Shown here in pieces: positions 1,204 through 28,081 of a stretch of 28,081 nt of DNA (position 1 is its first letter; each line of letters opens with the position of its first letter). Made by a program: the position numbers and the translations under genes. This DNA comes from Pyrinomonadaceae bacterium. GTDB taxonomy: Bacteria > Acidobacteriota > Blastocatellia > Pyrinomonadales > Pyrinomonadaceae. The stretch spans positions 1-28,081 of the forward strand of contig DATJKO010000231.1 in the NCBI GenBank assembly GCA_035491355.1, written 5' to 3'. Under the pieces are notes generated by a model that worked only from the letters and a program-made list of their open reading frames with translations, had not been told where the DNA came from and did no database searches.

Positions 1204-2232
1204 ATGTCAACAGCCGTCAAAAAAGAACACAAATCAGCGCGGCCTGAACGTGGAGGTCAGGCCACGCTTGTCGAAGCGATTCGCCAGGGTATCTGGGAAG
1301 AAATGGAACGCGATCCCGAAACGTTCGTCATCGGCGAAGACGTCGGCGCCTATGGCGGCGCGTTCAAAGTCACCGATGGGCTGATCGACGAGTTTGGCAA
1401 AGAACGAGTGATCGATACGCCGATCTCCGAAGGCGCGATCGTCGGCGCAGCATGCGGCGCCGCGTTGATGGGGATGCGCCCGATCGCGGAGTTTCAGTTT
1501 ATCGATTTCATTTCCGCCGGTTTCGATCTGCTTACGAACTACGCTGCAAAGTGTCGTTATCGCTGGGGCGCGTCTCTGCCCGTCGTGTTTCGTGGGCCAT
1601 GCGGTTCGGGCGTGCGCTCAGGTCCGTTTCACTCGCTGAATGCGGAGGCGTTTTTTCTCAACACGGCGGGACTGAAGATTGTCGAACCATCGACCGCGTA
1701 CGATGCGAAGGGTTTGATTAAGGCGGCGATTCGTGATCCCGATCCGGTGCTCTTTTTCGAGCACAAGAAGCTCTATCGCCTGCCGCGTCTGCGCGAGGAG
1801 TTGCCGTCGGACGATTACATCGTCGAGATTGGAAAGTCACGCGTGGCCCGGGCTGGACGCGACCTTTCGATCATCACGTTCGGAGCAATGGTGTTGACGG
1901 CGCTCGACGCGGCCGAGGAACTCGAAAAAGAAGGTTTGGACGTCGAGGTAATAGACTTGCGGACGTTGGCGCCGCTCGATCGTCCGGGCATTCTCGCGAG
2001 CGTGATGAAGACGAACAAGGCGATCGTGTTGCACGAAGCGTCGCGGACCGGTGGTATCGGTGGAGAGATCGCGGCGATTCTCGCCGAGGAAGCGTTCGAA
2101 TGGCTGGACGCGCCCGTCCTCCGTGTCGCGTCGATCGACACGCCGGTGCCATATTCGCCGCCGCTCGAAGACTACTACTTACCGCAAATCAAAGACGTGG
2201 TTGACGCCGCACGAAAGCTCGCGGCCTACTGA
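1204..2232 (+). CDS. 2-oxoacid dehydrogenase E1 beta subunit
   Basis: IGEDVGAYGGAFKVT, VIDTPISEGAIVG, AEFQFIDF, FFEHKKLY, VEVIDLRTLAPLD: transketolase-like pyrimidine-binding and C-terminal domains. Confidence 0.95.
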   Translation: MSTAVKKEHKSARPERGGQATLVEAIRQGIWEEMERDPETFVIGEDVGAYGGAFKVTDGLIDEFGKERVIDTPISEGAIVGAACGAALMGMRPIAEFQFIDFISAGFDLLTNYAAKCRYRWGASLPVVFRGPCGSGVRSGPFHSLNAEAFFLNTAGLKIVEPSTAYDAKGLIKAAIRDPDPVLFFEHKKLYRLPRLREELPSDDYIVEIGKSRVARAGRDLSIITFGAMVLTALDAAEELEKEGLDVEVIDLRTLAPLDRPGILASVMKTNKAIVLHEASRTGGIGGEIAAILAEEAFEWLDAPVLRVASIDTPVPYSPPLEDYYLPQIKDVVDAARKLAAY

Positions 2233-2262
2233 GATCGGAGATCTGAGATCTGAGATCTCAGA
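2230..2262 (+). repeat. Heptamer tandem repeat (TGAGATC/GGAGATC x4) ending in the 14-bp palindrome TCTGAGATCTCAGA
   Basis: TGAGATC 2230-2236 (its TGA is the E1 beta stop), GGAGATC 2237-2243, TGAGATC 2244-2250 and 2251-2257; palindrome 2249-2262. Confidence 0.8.
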
Positions 2263-6865: not shown

Positions 6866-7576
6866 ATGATGAAAGAAAGAAAGCTTCTGGTCCAAAGATT
6901 AGGACTCGTGGACTACGAGTCGGCCCTGACAGTCCAGAAAACGAACGAAATTGCGGTCAAAACCGGCGCCCAGGCCGACACGCTGTTGCTGCTCGAACAT
7001 CCGCATACGCTCACCATCGGCCGCCGCGGCGACAGTTCCGCCATTCTGCTTGACGAGGACGAACTCAAAGCGCGAAACGTGACGCTGTTCGAAACGAATC
7101 GTGGCGGAAAAGTGACTTACCACGGGCTCGGCCAGGTTGTCGGTTATCCGATTATCAATCTCAGCCCCGATCGCGAAGACGTGCATCGCTACGTGCGCGA
7201 CCTTGAAGAAGTGTTGATTCGCACGCTCGCCGACTTTCGTGTTGAAGCTTTTCGTATCGAAGGTCTAACCGGCGTGCACACAGCTCGCGGCAAAGTGGCG
7301 GCAATTGGGGTCCACATCGCGCGTTGGGTCACGACGCACGGCTTTGCCTTGAACGTCAATACGGATCTCAGCTACTTCAATCTCATCATTGCCTGCGAAG
7401 GCGAACCGGTTACTTCCATCGAAGAACTGACGGGCGACGAGACGCCGCTCAGCGTCGTCGAAGACCGTCTCGTGGTCCACTTCGCCGAGGTGTTTGAATA
7501 CAGTCTTAGCCACAAAGAGGCACAAAAGACACAAGGACAAAAGACAGAAGGAAATAGTACCGCTATATATGCTTAA
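6866..7576 (+). CDS. lipB: Lipoyl(octanoyl) transferase LipB
   Basis: LLLLEHPHTLTIGRRG, TNRGGKVTYHGLGQVVGYPI, KVAAIGVHIARWVTTHGFALNV, IIACEG. Confidence 0.95.
   Translation: MMKERKLLVQRLGLVDYESALTVQKTNEIAVKTGAQADTLLLLEHPHTLTIGRRGDSSAILLDEDELKARNVTLFETNRGGKVTYHGLGQVVGYPIINLSPDREDVHRYVRDLEEVLIRTLADFRVEAFRIEGLTGVHTARGKVAAIGVHIARWVTTHGFALNVNTDLSYFNLIIACEGEPVTSIEELTGDETPLSVVEDRLVVHFAEVFEYSLSHKEAQKTQGQKTEGNSTAIYA
7508..7550 (+). repeat. A-rich degenerate (C/G)ACAA repeat inside the 3' end of lipB
   Basis: agcCACAAagaggCACAAaagaCACAAgGACAAaaGACAgaagg; motif starts at 7511, 7521, 7530, 7536 and 7543; translates as SHKEAQKTQGQKTEG. Confidence 0.5.
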
Positions 7577-8516
7577 CATTGAAACGATCCAGGCGGCGCG
7601 CGAACGCATCGCGTCTCGCATTCATCGCACCCCGGTAATGACGTCGCGGCAGTTCAATGAAGCGGCGGGCAAAGAAGTGTTCTTCAAATGCGAGAACTTG
7701 CAGCGGGCAGGCGCATTCAAAATTCGCGGTGCGACGAACAAGATCCAATCACTGACGGAAGACGAGAAGCAACGCGGCATCGTGGCCTTTTCGTCAGGGA
7801 ATCATGCACAGGCGGTCGCACTCGCCGGTCGTGAAGCAGGCGTTCGCGCGTTGATTGCCATGCCGACGGATGCGCCGCAGGCGAAAGTCGCGGCCACGCG
7901 CGAATACGGCGCGGAGGTCGTTTTTTATGATCGTTTGAAACAGGACCGCGAAGCATTCGCGCTCGATCTCGCCGAACGTGAACGACTTGTGATGGTCCCA
8001 CCGTACGACGACGAATTTATTCTTGCCGGCCAGGCGACGTGCGGGCTCGAATTACTGGAAGACGTCCCCGATCTTGATTGCGTGCTCACGCCTTGCAGCG
8101 GTGGCGGACTATTCGCGGGCGTCGCGACGGCCGCAAAAGCCGCGAACCCGAGCATTCGCTGCTACCCGGTCGAACCTGAAGACGCCGACGACACTCGCCA
8201 GTCATTGCGAAAAGGCGAGCGCGTTACGATTCCTCCGCCCTCGACAATCGCCGACGGTCTGCGCGTCCAAATCCCCGGGAGACTCACGTTCCCGATAATC
8301 CAACAGCTCGCCGACGACGTGCTCACCGTGTCAGACGACGAGATCATCCTGACGCTTCGCTTCATGCTGTTCCGCATGAAACTGCTGGTGGAGACCTCCG
8401 GCGCCACGGCTGCGGCGGCTGTCATGTTCCAAAAACTGCCCGCGGATGTAAAGCGTGTCGGGGTGGTTTTGTCAGGCGGAAACATCGATCCGGAGCTGCT
8501 CGTGAAACTGCTGTAG
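7569..8516 (+). CDS. PLP-dependent threonine/serine dehydratase family enzyme (fold type II, no ACT domain)
   Basis: FFKCENLQRAGAFKIRGA (PLP Lys), FSSGNHAQAVA, PCSGGGL, TIADGL, LSGGN. ATG7569 overlaps the lipB stop. Confidence 0.92.
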   Translation: MLNIETIQAARERIASRIHRTPVMTSRQFNEAAGKEVFFKCENLQRAGAFKIRGATNKIQSLTEDEKQRGIVAFSSGNHAQAVALAGREAGVRALIAMPTDAPQAKVAATREYGAEVVFYDRLKQDREAFALDLAERERLVMVPPYDDEFILAGQATCGLELLEDVPDLDCVLTPCSGGGLFAGVATAAKAANPSIRCYPVEPEDADDTRQSLRKGERVTIPPPSTIADGLRVQIPGRLTFPIIQQLADDVLTVSDDEIILTLRFMLFRMKLLVETSGATAAAAVMFQKLPADVKRVGVVLSGGNIDPELLVKLL

Positions 8517-13251: not shown

Positions 13252-13707
13252 ATGGCAGCGAGCAAGGGAAGCAAGAAGTCTAAGGGTGCGCGCAAAGCGG
13301 GACGAAAGGGAGCAAAGAAGAGTGCCGCGAAGTCCAGATCGCGAGGCACTGCCAGGAAGTCGACCAAGAAGGCGGCGAAGAAGGCTGCGAAGAAGGGCGG
13401 GGCTAAGAAGGCCGCAGCGAAAGCGGGACGAAAAGCCGGAAAGAAAGCTGCGAAGAAGGGTATTAAGAAGGCTGCGGCAAAGAAGTCGACCAAGAAGGCT
13501 GGCAAGAAATCAGCCGCTAAATCTGCCGCTAAAAGAGCGGCGAATCAACGAGACCGCGAGTTGAGTCCGCCTGTTCAGGTCGCGCCGGAAACAACTGAAG
13601 CATCTGAGAGCGAAGCGTCCACCGTTGAATCTACCGCCGCAGAGCTCGACAACGCTGGCGCCGAAAGTGCGAGCCTCGGCGACGAAGAAGTAGAAGGATC
13701 CTACTAA
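13252..13707 (+). CDS. Histone H1-like Lys/Ala-rich protein with acidic C-terminal tail
   Basis: SD AAGGAG; about 95 residues of KKAAKK-type repeats, then an E/S/A-rich tail ending GDEEVEGSY. Confidence 0.75.
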   Translation: MAASKGSKKSKGARKAGRKGAKKSAAKSRSRGTARKSTKKAAKKAAKKGGAKKAAAKAGRKAGKKAAKKGIKKAAAKKSTKKAGKKSAAKSAAKRAANQRDRELSPPVQVAPETTEASESEASTVESTAAELDNAGAESASLGDEEVEGSY

Positions 13708-14609: not shown

Positions 14610-14719
14610 AGCGGCACAACCTTTCGCGTCAGCTCCGTCTGGGCCGGGGATTGACGCGGGCTTAGACACCGGTAGTGCGCGTTTGTTCCGCGGTGGCGCG
14701 AGAGCTTAGGATAGCGTGC

Positions 14720-15094
14720 ATGGAACACCGCGATCCCGCGATACGCATCACACTACTACCACGCGACACTAACTCTCAGGGCACGATCTTCGGCGGCGTC
14801 ATTCTCAGCTACATCGATACTGCCGGCGCGATCGAGGCCCACCGCCATACGCACATGCAACGGTTCGTAACCGTCGCAATGAAAGAAGTCATCTTTCACA
14901 AGCCGGTGTTCGTCGGCGACCTTGTGAGTTTCTATGCCGAAACGACGCGCGTGGGTAAGACGTCGATCACGACGCGCGTGATCGTGGAAGTTGAACGGTT
15001 GGGGAAGAGTGAACGCGTGCGCGTTACGGAAGCGGAAGTGATCTATGTCGCGGTGAATGAGAAAGGGGAGAAGATTCCGATTGAGCGGAAGTGA
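14720..15094 (+). CDS. Acyl-CoA thioesterase (hotdog fold, YciA-like)
   Basis: PRDTNSQGTIFGGVILSYIDTAG, FHKPVFVGDLV, RVGKTSI, YVAVNEKG. Confidence 0.92.
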   Translation: MEHRDPAIRITLLPRDTNSQGTIFGGVILSYIDTAGAIEAHRHTHMQRFVTVAMKEVIFHKPVFVGDLVSFYAETTRVGKTSITTRVIVEVERLGKSERVRVTEAEVIYVAVNEKGEKIPIERK

Positions 15095-15224
15095 GCTTTG
15101 AGCTTTGAGCTTTGTGCTTTGTACTTTGTACTTTGTACTTTGTACTTTGTACTTTGAGCTTTGTACTTTGTGCTTTGTGTTTTGTGTTTTGTGTTTTGAA
15201 GTTTGAGCTTTGAGGTTTGAACTT
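15092..15224 (+). repeat. Array of 19 tandem heptamers, consensus TG(A/T)(G/A)(C/T/G)TT
   Basis: In order: TGAGCTT x3, TGTGCTT, TGTACTT x5, TGAGCTT, TGTACTT, TGTGCTT, TGTGTTT x3, TGAAGTT, TGAGCTT, TGAGGTT, TGAACTT. The first TGA is the thioesterase stop. Confidence 0.95.
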
Positions 15225-15263
15225 CGTGTTTGTAGTTACGTTTTGGAAGTAAGCCTACAGCTA

Positions 15264-15298
15264 ACGAACCAAGAACAAAGCTCAAAGAACTAAGCTCA
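15264..15298 (-). repeat. Inverted arm of 5 heptamers of the same family
   Basis: Minus strand: TGAGCTT AGTTCTT TGAGCTT TGTTCTT GGTTCGT. The first TGA (15298-15296) is the stop of the convergent TPR gene. Confidence 0.85.
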
Positions 15299-15802
15299 AT
15301 TCAATCGGCACTGCATTCGTCGCAGCGCAACAGCCGCTTCTCTAAACTGCGGCTTCTGCTTCAACGCGAGGCCATAGTGCTTCGCCGCATCCATGAAGCG
15401 CTTGCGGTTTTCGTAAACGCGTCCGAGGTTGAAATGCGGAAACGCGTACGACTCATAACGCGGCGCCAGCAATGCACGCTTGAACCAACGGACCGAGCCG
15501 TACGAATCTCCTTGCGCGAGCAGGTAACTACCGATGTCGTTGTAAGGATTGCCTAAGGTTTCGTCCACTCGAATCGCCTCCAGACACTCCTCGATCGCCT
15601 CGTCGTACCGGTCCTGAAAACTGTAGACCCACCCGAGAAACGTATGCGCCTCCGCCGTAGGAAACGTTTCGATCGAACGTTTGTAGAGCTCGATCGCGCG
15701 GTCGTAGTCGCTCGCCTGCTGCGCTTCGTACGCTTCGTGGAAGAGCTGGTTTGCTTCATACCGTTTAAGGTCTGAAACGTCTTCGTGGGTCTTCATAACC
15801 AT
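15296..15802 (-). CDS. Tetratricopeptide-repeat protein
   Basis: YDRAIELYKRSIE, AEAHTFLGWVY...YDEAIEECLEAI, PYNDIGSY, PHFNLGRVY. Start abuts the nucleotidase stop. Confidence 0.88.
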   Translation of the reverse strand: MVMKTHEDVSDLKRYEANQLFHEAYEAQQASDYDRAIELYKRSIETFPTAEAHTFLGWVYSFQDRYDEAIEECLEAIRVDETLGNPYNDIGSYLLAQGDSYGSVRWFKRALLAPRYESYAFPHFNLGRVYENRKRFMDAAKHYGLALKQKPQFREAAVALRRMQCRLN

Positions 15803-19550: not shown

Positions 19551-19563
19551 CGAACATCGCCGG

Positions 19564-19635
19564 ATTGTCCGATTGCCGATTTCCGACTGCTTGTACCGAA
19601 GCGTCGAATTGGCAATCGGCAATTGGCACCTGGCA
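19564..19635. repeat. Heptamer-armed inverted repeat (TGCCGAT / ATCGGCA-ATTGGCA units)
   Basis: Left: attgtccg attgccg atttccg actgctt. Centre: GCTT-gtaccg-AAGC. Right: ATTGGCA ATCGGCA ATTGGCA CCTGGCA (19608-19635). Confidence 0.75.
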
Positions 19636-19649
19636 ATGGAACGAAGAAC

Positions 19650-26339: not shown

Positions 26340-27215
26340 ATGAAAGCCGTCGTTCCTGATTCCAGTGAATTCCCTCCCGGAACAGTCACTGAATATACGA
26401 CGCTGGTTTGTCTCGCCTGCATCTTCGACATCTTCACTAAACAGATCGGACTCGCACCACGATCCGCATATTCCGAAATCAAGCGTTACAGTCCGACGGT
26501 TGAAGAGTTGACGTCGCCGAAGGCGGTACGCCCGTTCTTCGATAGCGACGAGAAGCATCCGCGTTGTCCCTACTGCGACGCCGCGAAACGCTGGCACGCG
26601 CGCCTCGACACGCATTGCATCGAAGGCGGTAAGACTACTGACGCACCACGCCGCAAACTCGTGAAGAGTCTCGAGAAGAAGGGCGATCAGTTTGCGATTA
26701 CTGAGATGAAGTCTGATCGCCGGCGTGCGTTTTTTGACTGGCTCGACACGCTGCGCATCTCGATCGATCTGAGTAACGCCGAGTGGCTGTTCGCGGCAAC
26801 GAAAGCGTTTCTCGAACGCAAAGAACCGAAGCAGGATTGGGACTCGACGTTCGAGGGTTTGCGATCGATCCGGCCCTCCGCGAGGCTCGAAGACGGCTGG
26901 GAACATGAAGGATCGCGGCTGTTTCTGTCGCCTGCACTTTATAACGAGAGTTTGCTGGTGCAGTACCTCGTCAGCCGGTCACACGAGCATGGCGGACGTA
27001 CGCTGGCGGGCCGCTTGACGTTGATGGAGCTCATTCGGCGCCTGAGACGCGGTGGTTATCTCGAAGCGCACCAGATTTCAGACACGGACCAGTTTGAGAT
27101 CTTCGAAAAGATCGTCGATGAAGTCGCGGGATCGGGCAATCTGAAGCTGTATTACATCGTCGACCGTCGTGAGTTTCTCGACAAAGTAAAATCTGTGTAC
27201 GCGGCGTACGCGTGA
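26340..27215 (+). CDS. Hypothetical cytoplasmic protein with two CxxC motifs (possible Zn site)
   Basis: CLAC and CPYC motifs; long ORF 13 nt after ttcA; no family recognised. Confidence 0.75.
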   Translation: MKAVVPDSSEFPPGTVTEYTTLVCLACIFDIFTKQIGLAPRSAYSEIKRYSPTVEELTSPKAVRPFFDSDEKHPRCPYCDAAKRWHARLDTHCIEGGKTTDAPRRKLVKSLEKKGDQFAITEMKSDRRRAFFDWLDTLRISIDLSNAEWLFAATKAFLERKEPKQDWDSTFEGLRSIRPSARLEDGWEHEGSRLFLSPALYNESLLVQYLVSRSHEHGGRTLAGRLTLMELIRRLRRGGYLEAHQISDTDQFEIFEKIVDEVAGSGNLKLYYIVDRREFLDKVKSVYAAYA

Positions 27216-27285
27216 GTGAGTTTGTTCTTGGTTCTTTGTACTTGGTGCTTTGTTATAAGTACAAAGAACAAAGATCTAAGCTCAC
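27216..27285. repeat. Heptamer-armed inverted repeat between convergent genes, same family as 15092-15298
   Basis: Left: GTGAGTT TGTTCTT GGTTCTT TGTACTT GGTGCTT. Right arm read on minus: GTGAGCTT AGATCTT TGTTCTT TGTACTT. Confidence 0.85.
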
Positions 27286-27296
27286 TGCGGATCGAG

Positions 27297-28081
27297 TTAC
27301 CGCTGAAGCTTGTACTTGTCGATGAGTTGCTGCAAGCCTTTGGTCGATTGATTGTTGCGGTATTTGTAGTAATTCGTCAGGTCCGGGATTACTTGCTGCA
27401 TTAGCGTTTGGTACTCCGGCCGGCCGGTCGCAAGTGCGGCCGCGCGGGCGTAGGCGTCGATGATCGTGTCGAGCATGGCGTCGAGTCGCTTTAGCGTCTC
27501 CTTCTTCTCTTTCCCCTCCGGCAACGCTTCGTAAGCGTCCATCTGCTTCACATAGCCGGCGTGAATCACACGTCCGAGCAGGGCGAAGTTCGATGGATCG
27601 TCAGGACGCAATGTCGTCGCTTTCGTGAGGCGCGCTTTCGCTTCGTCAGTCCTGCCAGTGCCGAGATAGAGGATCGCGGTCTGTTGATACAGCTGGCCCA
27701 GGTTGGAACCGTATTCCTTCCAGGACTTATCGTCGAGCTTCTGCGGCTTCACGCCGGCTTCGATCAACGCGATCGCTTTGATTCCATATCCCAACGCAAC
27801 GTCAGCGTGCTCGCGATTTCGTTTGCGGACTTGTTCAGATCCCGCGCGGGTCATCTGCACCAGGACGTATAAGTCGTCCGGATCGCGTGCGAGTAACTCA
27901 GCTGCCAACTTGAACGCATCGTTTGCTCGGTTGCCAGTCGCGTACGCTTCGAGCGCCACGGGCTTGAGGACTTCGCGTTCGTCGTCGTTGGTGAAGATCG
28001 CCTGCGCGCGCTCGACGAGGGTGATCGCAACCGTGCCGTTTTGTACTTTCAGGATCTCGGCGGCTACCAGTTCGGCGGCCT
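27297..28081 (-). CDS. TPR-like alpha-helical protein, 5'-truncated by window edge
   Basis: Frame stays open upstream of the listed GTG (AAELVAAEILKVQNG...); YQQTAILYLGTGRTDEAKARLTKATTLRPDDPSNFALLG is a TPR-like unit. Confidence 0.75.
   Translation of the reverse strand, partial: AAELVAAEILKVQNGTVAITLVERAQAIFTNDDEREVLKPVALEAYATGNRANDAFKLAAELLARDPDDLYVLVQMTRAGSEQVRKRNREHADVALGYGIKAIALIEAGVKPQKLDDKSWKEYGSNLGQLYQQTAILYLGTGRTDEAKARLTKATTLRPDDPSNFALLGRVIHAGYVKQMDAYEALPEGKEKKETLKRLDAMLDTIIDAYARAAALATGRPEYQTLMQQVIPDLTNYYKYRNNQSTKGLQQLIDKYKLQR

Follow-up and report, generated by a model that had tools for sequence, protein, structure and literature searches.

Background

Since 1990 it has been known, from the short tandemly repeated repetitive (STRR) sequences of cyanobacteria reportedly described by Mazel and co-workers, that heptamers occur in tandem between bacterial genes. 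The repetitive extragenic palindromes of Proteobacteria (REP, BIME and REPIN) are likewise abundant between genes, where they lie just after stop codons in co-directional and convergent spacers and stabilise mRNA 3' ends; REPs are fixed palindromes of 20-40 nt that are mobilised by RAYT. Here we analyse a 207-nt heptamer element at positions 15092-15298 of a 28,081-nt stretch of DNA, referred to below as the window, which is contig DATJKO010000231.1 of the Pyrinomonadaceae bacterium (Acidobacteriota) assembly GCA_035491355.1. The element is an unusually long member of a class of hairpin repeats that lie between genes throughout the lineage, each built from two inverted 7-nt arrays around a short centre.

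The closest described systems are the heptameric intergenic repeats of Xanthomonas (GGGAATC) and Nostoc (GGGGAYT) (Rehm et al. 2015, PLoS One, PMC4692102). In Xanthomonas they occupy hundreds of intergenic sites, for the most part with aligned open reading frames (ORFs) on either side, with a strong bias to lie within 50 bp of a stop codon or to overlap it; each genome has 70-75 "convergent" inverted pairs with the G-rich strand first, length and sequence vary among close relatives, and most copies are transcribed (PMC4692102). The TAACTGA repeats of Beggiatoaceae, Cyanobacteria and Bacteroidetes form sets of 2-6 copies that are almost all direct (with one inverted case) and point toward start codons (MacGregor 2015, PMC4679880). 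A third related system is provided by the 23S rRNA intervening sequences of Leptospira and Coxiella, which carry an S23p/PF05635 ORF and are excised by RNase III cutting within the stem formed by their inverted flanks (PMC4990558).

Many intergenic tandem 7-nt arrays, inverted pairs, proximity to stop codons and variation among relatives are shared with the Xanthomonas heptamers, so that the stop-anchored, two-armed design, which an initial interpretation from the letters alone (the sequence-only reading) had considered undescribed, has a clear precedent (PMC4692102). In contrast to that precedent, the unit found here, CTTTGNN, lacks a G-run and cannot form a quadruplex (the units read W-D-C-T-T-D-G, with no tract of at least three G); many unrelated unit families coexist in one acidobacterial genome; arrays reach 19-33 units; and there is a link to gene cassettes of the PF05635 family that is absent from the description by Rehm et al. 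(PMC4692102). As in the case of STRR and TAACTGA repeats, tandem heptamers are dispersed between genes, several unit families occur per genome and some overlap stop codons; unlike in TAACTGA sets, fixed-order inverted pairs dominate and hug the stop codons. The same reading had called the element STRR-like, and this agrees with its head-to-tail 7-nt units and its membership in a genome-wide family with dispersed intergenic copies and stop-adjacent inverted pairs. The GTCAGTT and GGTCAGT families of the source genome are one base off TAACTGA (read on the other strand) and, presumably, also one base off STRR2 (TTGGTCA).

With the 23S rRNA intervening sequences the element shares a long stem of inverted flanks around a loop, and in relatives a PF05635 gene occupies this loop, enclosed by the same heptamer arms; the window element contains no ORF, lies between protein genes rather than in rRNA, and is built of tandem-unit arrays, whereas the published stems are described as simple inverted repeats (PMC4990558). 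With REP, BIME and REPIN the heptamer hairpins share their abundance as intergenic inverted repeats adjoining stop codons and their occurrence in co-directional and convergent spacers. The heptamer arms, however, are tandem arrays of variable length, and only weak Y1 transposase matches were obtained in the source genome. A search for a co-distributed RAYT/HUH nuclease or reverse transcriptase gave no link to either: Y1 genes are common in the class but come with their own classical REPs, and the 74%-complete source genome has no RVT_1 match. Two relatives (loci L087 on G003:C13 and L088 on G026:C17) carry RAYT-like Y1 transposase genes flanked by classical REP-type palindromes (GGCCGGGCTAAATTCATGCC), so that a separate REP/RAYT system coexists with the heptamer hairpins. 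In the literature searched, we found no paper on such heptamer repeats in Acidobacteriota; the novel points are the lineage, a unit that forms no quadruplex, how many families coexist, a polarity rule put into numbers and the verified link to PF05635.

Structure of the element in the window

The element occupies the entire intergenic gap between a thioesterase gene and a convergent gene for a tetratricopeptide repeat (TPR) protein, beyond which the next gene encodes a 5'-nucleotidase. The features of the locus are as follows.

14675..15094, plus strand: 4HBT-type thioesterase gene (ORF list; Pfam PF03061, E 2.7e-17), with its stop codon at 15092-15094
15092..15224, plus strand: left arm of 19 in-phase CTTTGNN heptamers (TGNNCTT in the register of the sequence-only reading), with blocks of 3, 5 and 3 identical units (sequence, Tandem Repeats Finder (TRF), chain detection with 19 cores)
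15225..15263, no strand: centre of 39 nt, non-repeated, with degenerate units and a small imperfect hairpin at about 15231-15257, forming the loop of the large hairpin (sequence; minimum free energy folds of both strands pair the centre locally)
15264..15298, minus strand: right arm, in which five units run in inverted orientation (plus-strand reading CAAAGNN); the outermost one, TGAGCTT, contains the TGA of the TPR gene (sequence, chain detection, minimum free energy fold)
15296..15802, minus strand: TPR-repeat protein gene with the C-terminus ..RLN-stop (ORF list, profile match, orthologues in relatives)

The units of the left arm follow each other in the order TGAGCTT (three times), TGTGCTT, TGTACTT (five times), TGAGCTT, TGTACTT, TGTGCTT, TGTGTTT (three times), TGAAGTT, TGAGCTT, TGAGGTT and TGAACTT, and those of the right arm, read on the minus strand from 15298 to 15264, are TGAGCTT, AGTTCTT, TGAGCTT, TGTTCTT and GGTTCGT. 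TRF reports the left array with period 7, 14.9 copies and a score of 124. The description of 19 contiguous units of strict period, a unique centre and five units on the opposite strand was thus confirmed, as was the position of both arms: the ORFs at 14675-15094 and 15296-15802 end in TGA codons that are the first three bases of the outermost TGAGCTT units. A more informative register of the unit is a CTTTG core followed by two variable bases, which is used below. The left arm is the longest T-rich arm (T-arm) of the genome, and the element of 207 nt is among the largest (median 112 nt, maximum 223 nt). No match at the gathering score was found in Rfam for the whole window.

The source assembly is a metagenome-assembled genome of 3.35 Mb in 712 contigs (57% G+C, 74% completeness), and the window is its longest contig. 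Related loci place it in the Pyrinomonadaceae (Acidobacteriota, Blastocatellia). Three soil or rhizosphere runs, one of which may be the sample behind the window's own assembly, gave Logan contigs that independently span positions 14700-15121, with the thioesterase gene and the four outermost left-arm units, and positions 15166-15458, with the inner part of the left arm, the centre, the right arm and the TPR gene, so that both junctions of gene and array are reproduced. Within the block of five TGTACTT units the k=31 contigs break off, and the number of 19 units is the count in this assembly alone. With the exception of that number, an assembly artefact, which had been named as a possible refutation, is contradicted by these contigs and by near-complete, few-contig assemblies of relatives, which hold arrays of 10 to more than 30 units of the same architecture.

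A genome-wide family with a fixed order of arms

Arrays of at least four CTTTG-core units were found 93 times on each strand of the genome, and the control core read backwards (GTTTC/GAAAC) gave none; the CTTTG-core arrays are not a product of chance. They form 115 loci, comprising 68 pairs with the T-arm before the A-arm, two pairs in the opposite order and 45 single arrays. The inverted pairing noticed in the window is therefore the rule, with 68 of 70 CTTTGNN pairs sharing one arm order. It also extends beyond this family: TRF gave 470 rows of period 7, which merge into 341 arrays of at least three copies, 294 of them intergenic (less than 50% coding), and 208 of these 294 (71%) have a reverse-complement partner array within 250 nt, compared to one in the control. 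Among all paired heptamer families the left arm is G+T-rich in 99 of 102 cases and the right arm A+C-rich in 101 of 106. Since such a layout is its own reverse complement, a transcript arriving from either side meets the G/U-rich arm first. Of the 24 genomes of the genus that were sampled, 20 carry CTTTGNN arrays, which also occur in several genera of the bacterial family. Elsewhere in the phylum they are rare, having been found in 12 of 301 genomes with the source genome counted in.

Three reasons for the fixed order of arms were considered. A fail-safe stop function was rejected, as the arms close on average 0.83 reading frames as they stand and 1.22 if reversed, although CTTTGNN alone goes the other way (1.02 versus 0.64). 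Folding asymmetry was also rejected as a cause, the energies of sense and antisense strands being alike. Avoidance of accidental terminators is weakly suggested by the contexts of the exceptions: both A-first CTTTGNN pairs lie between convergent genes, and for heptamers and octamers together 7 of 27 A-first pairs are convergent versus 14 of 80 T-first pairs.

Gene context and stop codons

Gene contexts were assigned with a home-made codon-usage caller, which gave 2916 genes and 89% coding. Fifty CTTTGNN pairs occupy co-directional spacers, five convergent and five divergent ones; for T-first heptamer pairs of all families the counts are 54, 13 and 9, and for background spacers 1588, 326 and 290. 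The expected enrichment between convergent genes did not materialise, since the contexts of the pairs match the background mix of spacers, and the window, where both convergent junctions contain CTTTGNN hairpins, is not representative of the genome in this respect.

In contrast, the predicted bias of heptamer arrays toward stop codons holds genome-wide. The distance from stop to core has a median of 7 nt, and 48 of 65 junctions fall between -15 and +12 nt. In 30 of 42 co-directional spacers the element lies closer to the stop than to the start (p = 0.008), in a test that is conservative because longest-ORF starts understate the distances to starts. Elements take up ~83% of their spacer. Of 60 junctions, 25 have a stop codon that keeps the register of the unit or falls within the first units, and in 7 of these 25 it lies inside the array, so that the array itself supplies the stop codon.

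Turnover at orthologous spacers

The synteny of the nucleotidase, TPR and thioesterase genes is kept in ~25 Pyrinomonadaceae genomes. In these relatives the TPR C-terminus ..RLN-stop is invariant, which indicates that the stop is native and that the array begins on it, and the thioesterase orthologues end within ~2 codons of the same point. The spacer between the two genes ranges from 11 to 426 nt and contains either no repeat or one of at least seven different repeat-hairpin families. CTTTGNN hairpins occupy it in two relatives (L017 and L054), and in L054 both arms likewise begin on, or directly after, the TGA stops; the hairpins of other relatives are built from the units GGTAAGA, GATTGCA, TTTCCAT or GTGAAAA, or from 9-mers. 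Five relatives have spacers of 11-30 nt without any repeat array, and the absence of the array in the nearest relatives points to fast turnover at this site. We infer that the ancestral spacer was only about 11-30 nt long, so short that any insert must touch both stop codons. In one relative (L020), where the spacer reaches 426 nt, heptamer arms of the TTTCCAT/AAATGAC family enclose a 56-codon Cys-rich ORF that is not PF05635, which means that repeat arms can enclose other small cargo.

A different pattern is observed at the ahpC site (19563-19637 in the window), where a hairpin directly follows the stop codon in every relative examined. Most relatives have a simple or two-unit stem with a T-run at this position; in the source genome, in L017 and in L053 the hairpin is built of heptamers and lacks a T-run.

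Variation of units within and between arrays

Cores of the CTTTGNN family are CTTTG (68%), CTTGG (12%) and CTTAG (11%), and the variable dinucleotide is, from the commonest, TA, TG, TT, AG and AA. Identical neighbouring units account for 8 of 18 neighbour pairs in the window's left array, compared to 19% genome-wide and ~11% expected by our estimate. The sequence-only reading had taken the block-wise variants as a sign of slippage, and both the blocks of identical units and the excess of identical neighbours fit recent slippage in this array. Neither core integrity nor neighbour identity shows an outer-to-inner gradient along the arms, which rules out directional growth. Arms as exact inverted duplicates were rejected as well, the order of dinucleotides being at chance with 1 of 32 loci reaching p <= 0.05; the two arms evolve separately and pair mainly through their cores.

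Heterogeneous words of 4-5 units are shared between loci more often than in within-arm shuffles (71 versus 20 +/- 5, and 11 versus 1.2), which points to exchange between loci or to shared higher-order units. The dominant dinucleotide differs between relatives, being GT in G173 and G007, GA in G073, CA in G246 and AA in G050; such species-specific variants across dispersed loci indicate that the repertoire of units is homogenised within genomes.

Centres show no relationship to each other, save for those in which a second family of heptamers is nested, and a conserved centre resembling a miniature inverted-repeat transposable element was therefore ruled out. At C636:1000-1204, for example, a GGTCAGT/GACCACT heptamer hairpin is located inside a CTTTGNN/CAAAGNN hairpin, and similar arrangements were found on contigs C312, C324, C574, C573 and C639. 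The presence of GGTCAGT in CTTTGNN centres at several loci means that loops accept inserts, and the nested order of the arms suggests either insertion into loops or successive addition of outer arms.

PF05635 cassettes between heptamer arms

Genes of the PF05635 family, the protein of 23S rRNA intervening sequences, were detected in 36 of 41 relatives, a single genome holding as many as 19, and in one of 14 control genomes. Period-7 arrays adjoin the gene at all 12 PF05635 loci fetched, and at 11 of them lie on both sides and in inverted orientation, an arrangement to which the sequence-only reading made no reference. At one locus (L110, G029:C35) the gene is located between (CTTTGTG/CTTTGTA)x5 and (CAAAGNN)x4-5, the unit family of the window element, and the whole cassette is wedged between the stop of one gene and the start of the next. 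The source genome itself has two PF05635 genes, one (C508) between inverted GACGCGGG 8-mers and the other (C283) between inverted TTTCGAA/AATTCGC 7-mers. In some cassettes the A-rich arm precedes the other arm. Of the 301 genomes sampled across the phylum, 166 have PF05635; the tally counts in the unpublished genome G063, on which no conclusion depends. PF05635 was detected in at least 11 of the 12 genomes with CTTTGNN arrays; G234, which has a single CTTTGNN array, is not among the PF05635 positives listed.

Folding and proposed origin of the element

The predicted minimum free energy is -66.6 kcal/mol for the plus strand (z -3.6) and -49.8 kcal/mol for the minus strand (z -4.8), compared to shuffled sequences. 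In the predicted fold the right arm pairs with the left-arm units around 15154-15190, the five right-arm units thus taking one of many possible registers on the left arm.

The interpretation that we favour, to which we would give an even chance, is that the window element is a gene-less, slippage-expanded copy of the cassette hairpin, and that its RNA stem is a putative processing site of the RNase III type or a 3'-end barrier. According to this model, a cassette hairpin without a gene would have been enlarged in place by replication slippage, which would explain the blocks of identical units, and it would touch both stop codons because the ancestral spacer was so short. Transcription of either convergent gene would produce an RNA with the U-rich arm first and the A-rich arm second, which could fold into a long, register-slippery stem of 5-bp core helices split by small internal loops. 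By analogy with the stems of intervening sequences, such a stem might act both as a site of double-stranded RNA processing and as a barrier at the 3' end, marking off the two mRNAs rather than stopping the polymerase. An RNase III gene is present in the source genome. Much of the spread of the repeat may nevertheless be selfish.

Several observations weigh against this interpretation. Only one PF05635 cassette with exactly CTTTGNN arms was found (G029:C35), and the 39-nt centre in the window has no PF05635 ORF or any gene trace, which leaves descent of the element from a cassette conjectural. The mirror order of dinucleotides between arms is 0.56, versus 0.52 after shuffling; as the arms are not mirror-ordered, the stem has imperfections, and selection may not act on its pairing. 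Across elements, the sense strand folds neither better nor worse than the antisense strand (17 versus 24, p = 0.22), which rules out strand selection at the RNA level. Finally, divergent spacers hold 9 of 76 heptamer pairs, approximately as expected from the 13% of the background, and this share is easier to reconcile with neutral or selfish filling than with a dedicated role at the 3' end.

Alternative explanations

Some of these observations lend weight to a purely selfish or neutral origin, in which slippage-prone heptamers fill tolerant spacers and the hairpin is a by-product with no role in RNA or the cell. The background-like mix of gene contexts, the unmatched arms, the absence of strand asymmetry in folding, the conservation of cores without a gradient along the arms, and the fast turnover at orthologous sites, where some relatives have very short array-less spacers, are all compatible with this view. 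However, local slippage does not predict a near-fixed arm order (99 of 102) across unrelated unit families, nor does neutrality sit well with species-specific units at dispersed loci (TA, TG, TT and AG here; GT, GA or CA in relatives), with a core that is conserved while two of seven positions are free, or with the ahpC site, where the hairpin is retained in every relative. On balance we consider neutral simple-sequence DNA a possible but rather doubtful explanation. A bidirectional terminator for the two convergent genes, as the sequence-only reading had suggested, is in our judgement very unlikely. The element does occupy the sole space where terminators could lie and has strong predicted folds on both strands; most relatives have a hairpin with a T-run at the ahpC site, where the source genome has a heptamer hairpin; and in Xanthomonas heptamer repeats coincide with the start or stop of a transcript more often than controls do (PMC4692102). 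But an intrinsic terminator that works in both directions requires an A-tract, a stem and a U-tract, and canonical termination is made unlikely by the U-rich arm, which is the 5' arm on both strands with no U-tract after the stem, and by the location of most copies in nearly filled co-directional spacers, where termination would cut operons; a scan with the terminator consensus found one site versus 2.1 expected.

A more specific, though improbable, idea is that the 7-nt period and the fixed order of arms exist because the G/U-rich arm, which is transcribed first, is a row of predicted 7-nt sites for cold-shock domains, the coating of which would prevent or tune folding of the hairpin. Bacillus subtilis CspB has its optimum site in the heptanucleotide GTCTTTG/T, where position 3 is C and positions 2, 4 and 6 are T (PMC1904285); the unit NNCTTTG resembles it, and the dominant CTTTGGT of the relatives G007, G173 and G006 rotates to exactly GTCTTTG. 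Further heptamer families have the sequences GTCATTT and GTCAGTG, the footprint of CspB is as long as the 7-nt period, the polarity of arms fits co-transcriptional binding, and the genome has a cold-shock-domain gene. On the other hand, the match was noticed post hoc, and with dozens of heptamer families chance would produce one at roughly the per-cent level; cold-shock proteins are near-universal and give no co-distribution signal; the optimum comes from B. subtilis CspB and may not be the specificity of this organism; and some PF05635 cassettes have the A-rich arm first. If this idea were true, the hairpins, and perhaps bacterial heptamer repeats in general, would be RNA switches: the level of cold-shock protein would set their folding and, through it, RNA processing or read-through. 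The assembly has one cold-shock-domain match (C307:3874-3972), which is cut by the contig end. Least probable, indeed barely plausible, is an element acting at the DNA level, as a cruciform or slipped structure or as a double-stranded array for a nucleoid or replication protein, in which three units (21 bp) would span two helical turns. Inverted arrays could extrude cruciforms, TRF also gives period 21 for many arrays, and the arm order is symmetric on both DNA strands; yet no candidate protein is known, the order of variants in the window's array has no 21-nt regularity, and imperfect arms disfavour cruciforms.

Other repeats in the window and the genome

Three further heptamer elements were detected in the window.

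27213..27299, no strand: second, compact copy of the CTTTGNN family with 5 + 4 units and almost no centre, between another convergent gene pair (TRF, chain detection)
19563..19637, no strand: TTGCCGA/TCGGCAA hairpin of like architecture between co-directional ahpC-like and ykuV-like genes (TRF)
2229..2262, no strand: self-complementary CTGAGAT heptamer array (containing AGATCT), which starts on the TGA of E1-beta and ends 10 nt before the start of E2 (TRF)

Repeats of other periods are also present. Tandem repeats of 63 nt and 12 nt at 13356-13533 lie inside a Lys/Ala-rich coding region (AAGAAGGCGGCG units) and probably represent a low-complexity basic protein tail unrelated to the heptamers. 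A single arm of a 9-nt family (CACAAAAGG-like) at 7510-7552 overlaps the 5' end of the longest ORF at 7494-8516, the true start of which is probably further downstream; this 9-nt family forms hairpins at the orthologous TPR spacer in the relatives L008, L009, L014, L055 and L063. Elsewhere in the genome an abundant 8-mer family (145 TRF rows) forms hairpins of the type CCCGC(AAAGGCGC)n ... (GCGCCTTT)nGCGGG, for example at C163:2270-2370 and C545:7070-7235. Its core, CAAAG, is also that of the heptamers, but the order of arms is reversed, with the A-rich arm first, and some copies are followed by a T-run.

Conclusions

Arrays of this kind have practical consequences for genomics, as units that overlap stop codons can mislead gene callers, and heptamer arrays probably help to explain the fragmentation of the source assembly, in which several of them lie at contig ends; the k=31 contigs break inside the window's array. 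The source genome, with several hundred arrays in 3.3 Mb, is an extreme case of bacterial tandem heptamers. Any explanation is constrained by the near-invariant order of arms across unrelated families, by arms that are not mirror images, by a species-specific repertoire of units, by the replacement of one family by another at orthologous sites, and by an architecture that works without quadruplex-forming units. The presence of PF05635 genes between the same arms ties the heptamers to the intervening sequences of rRNA and suggests RNase III as a candidate enzyme.

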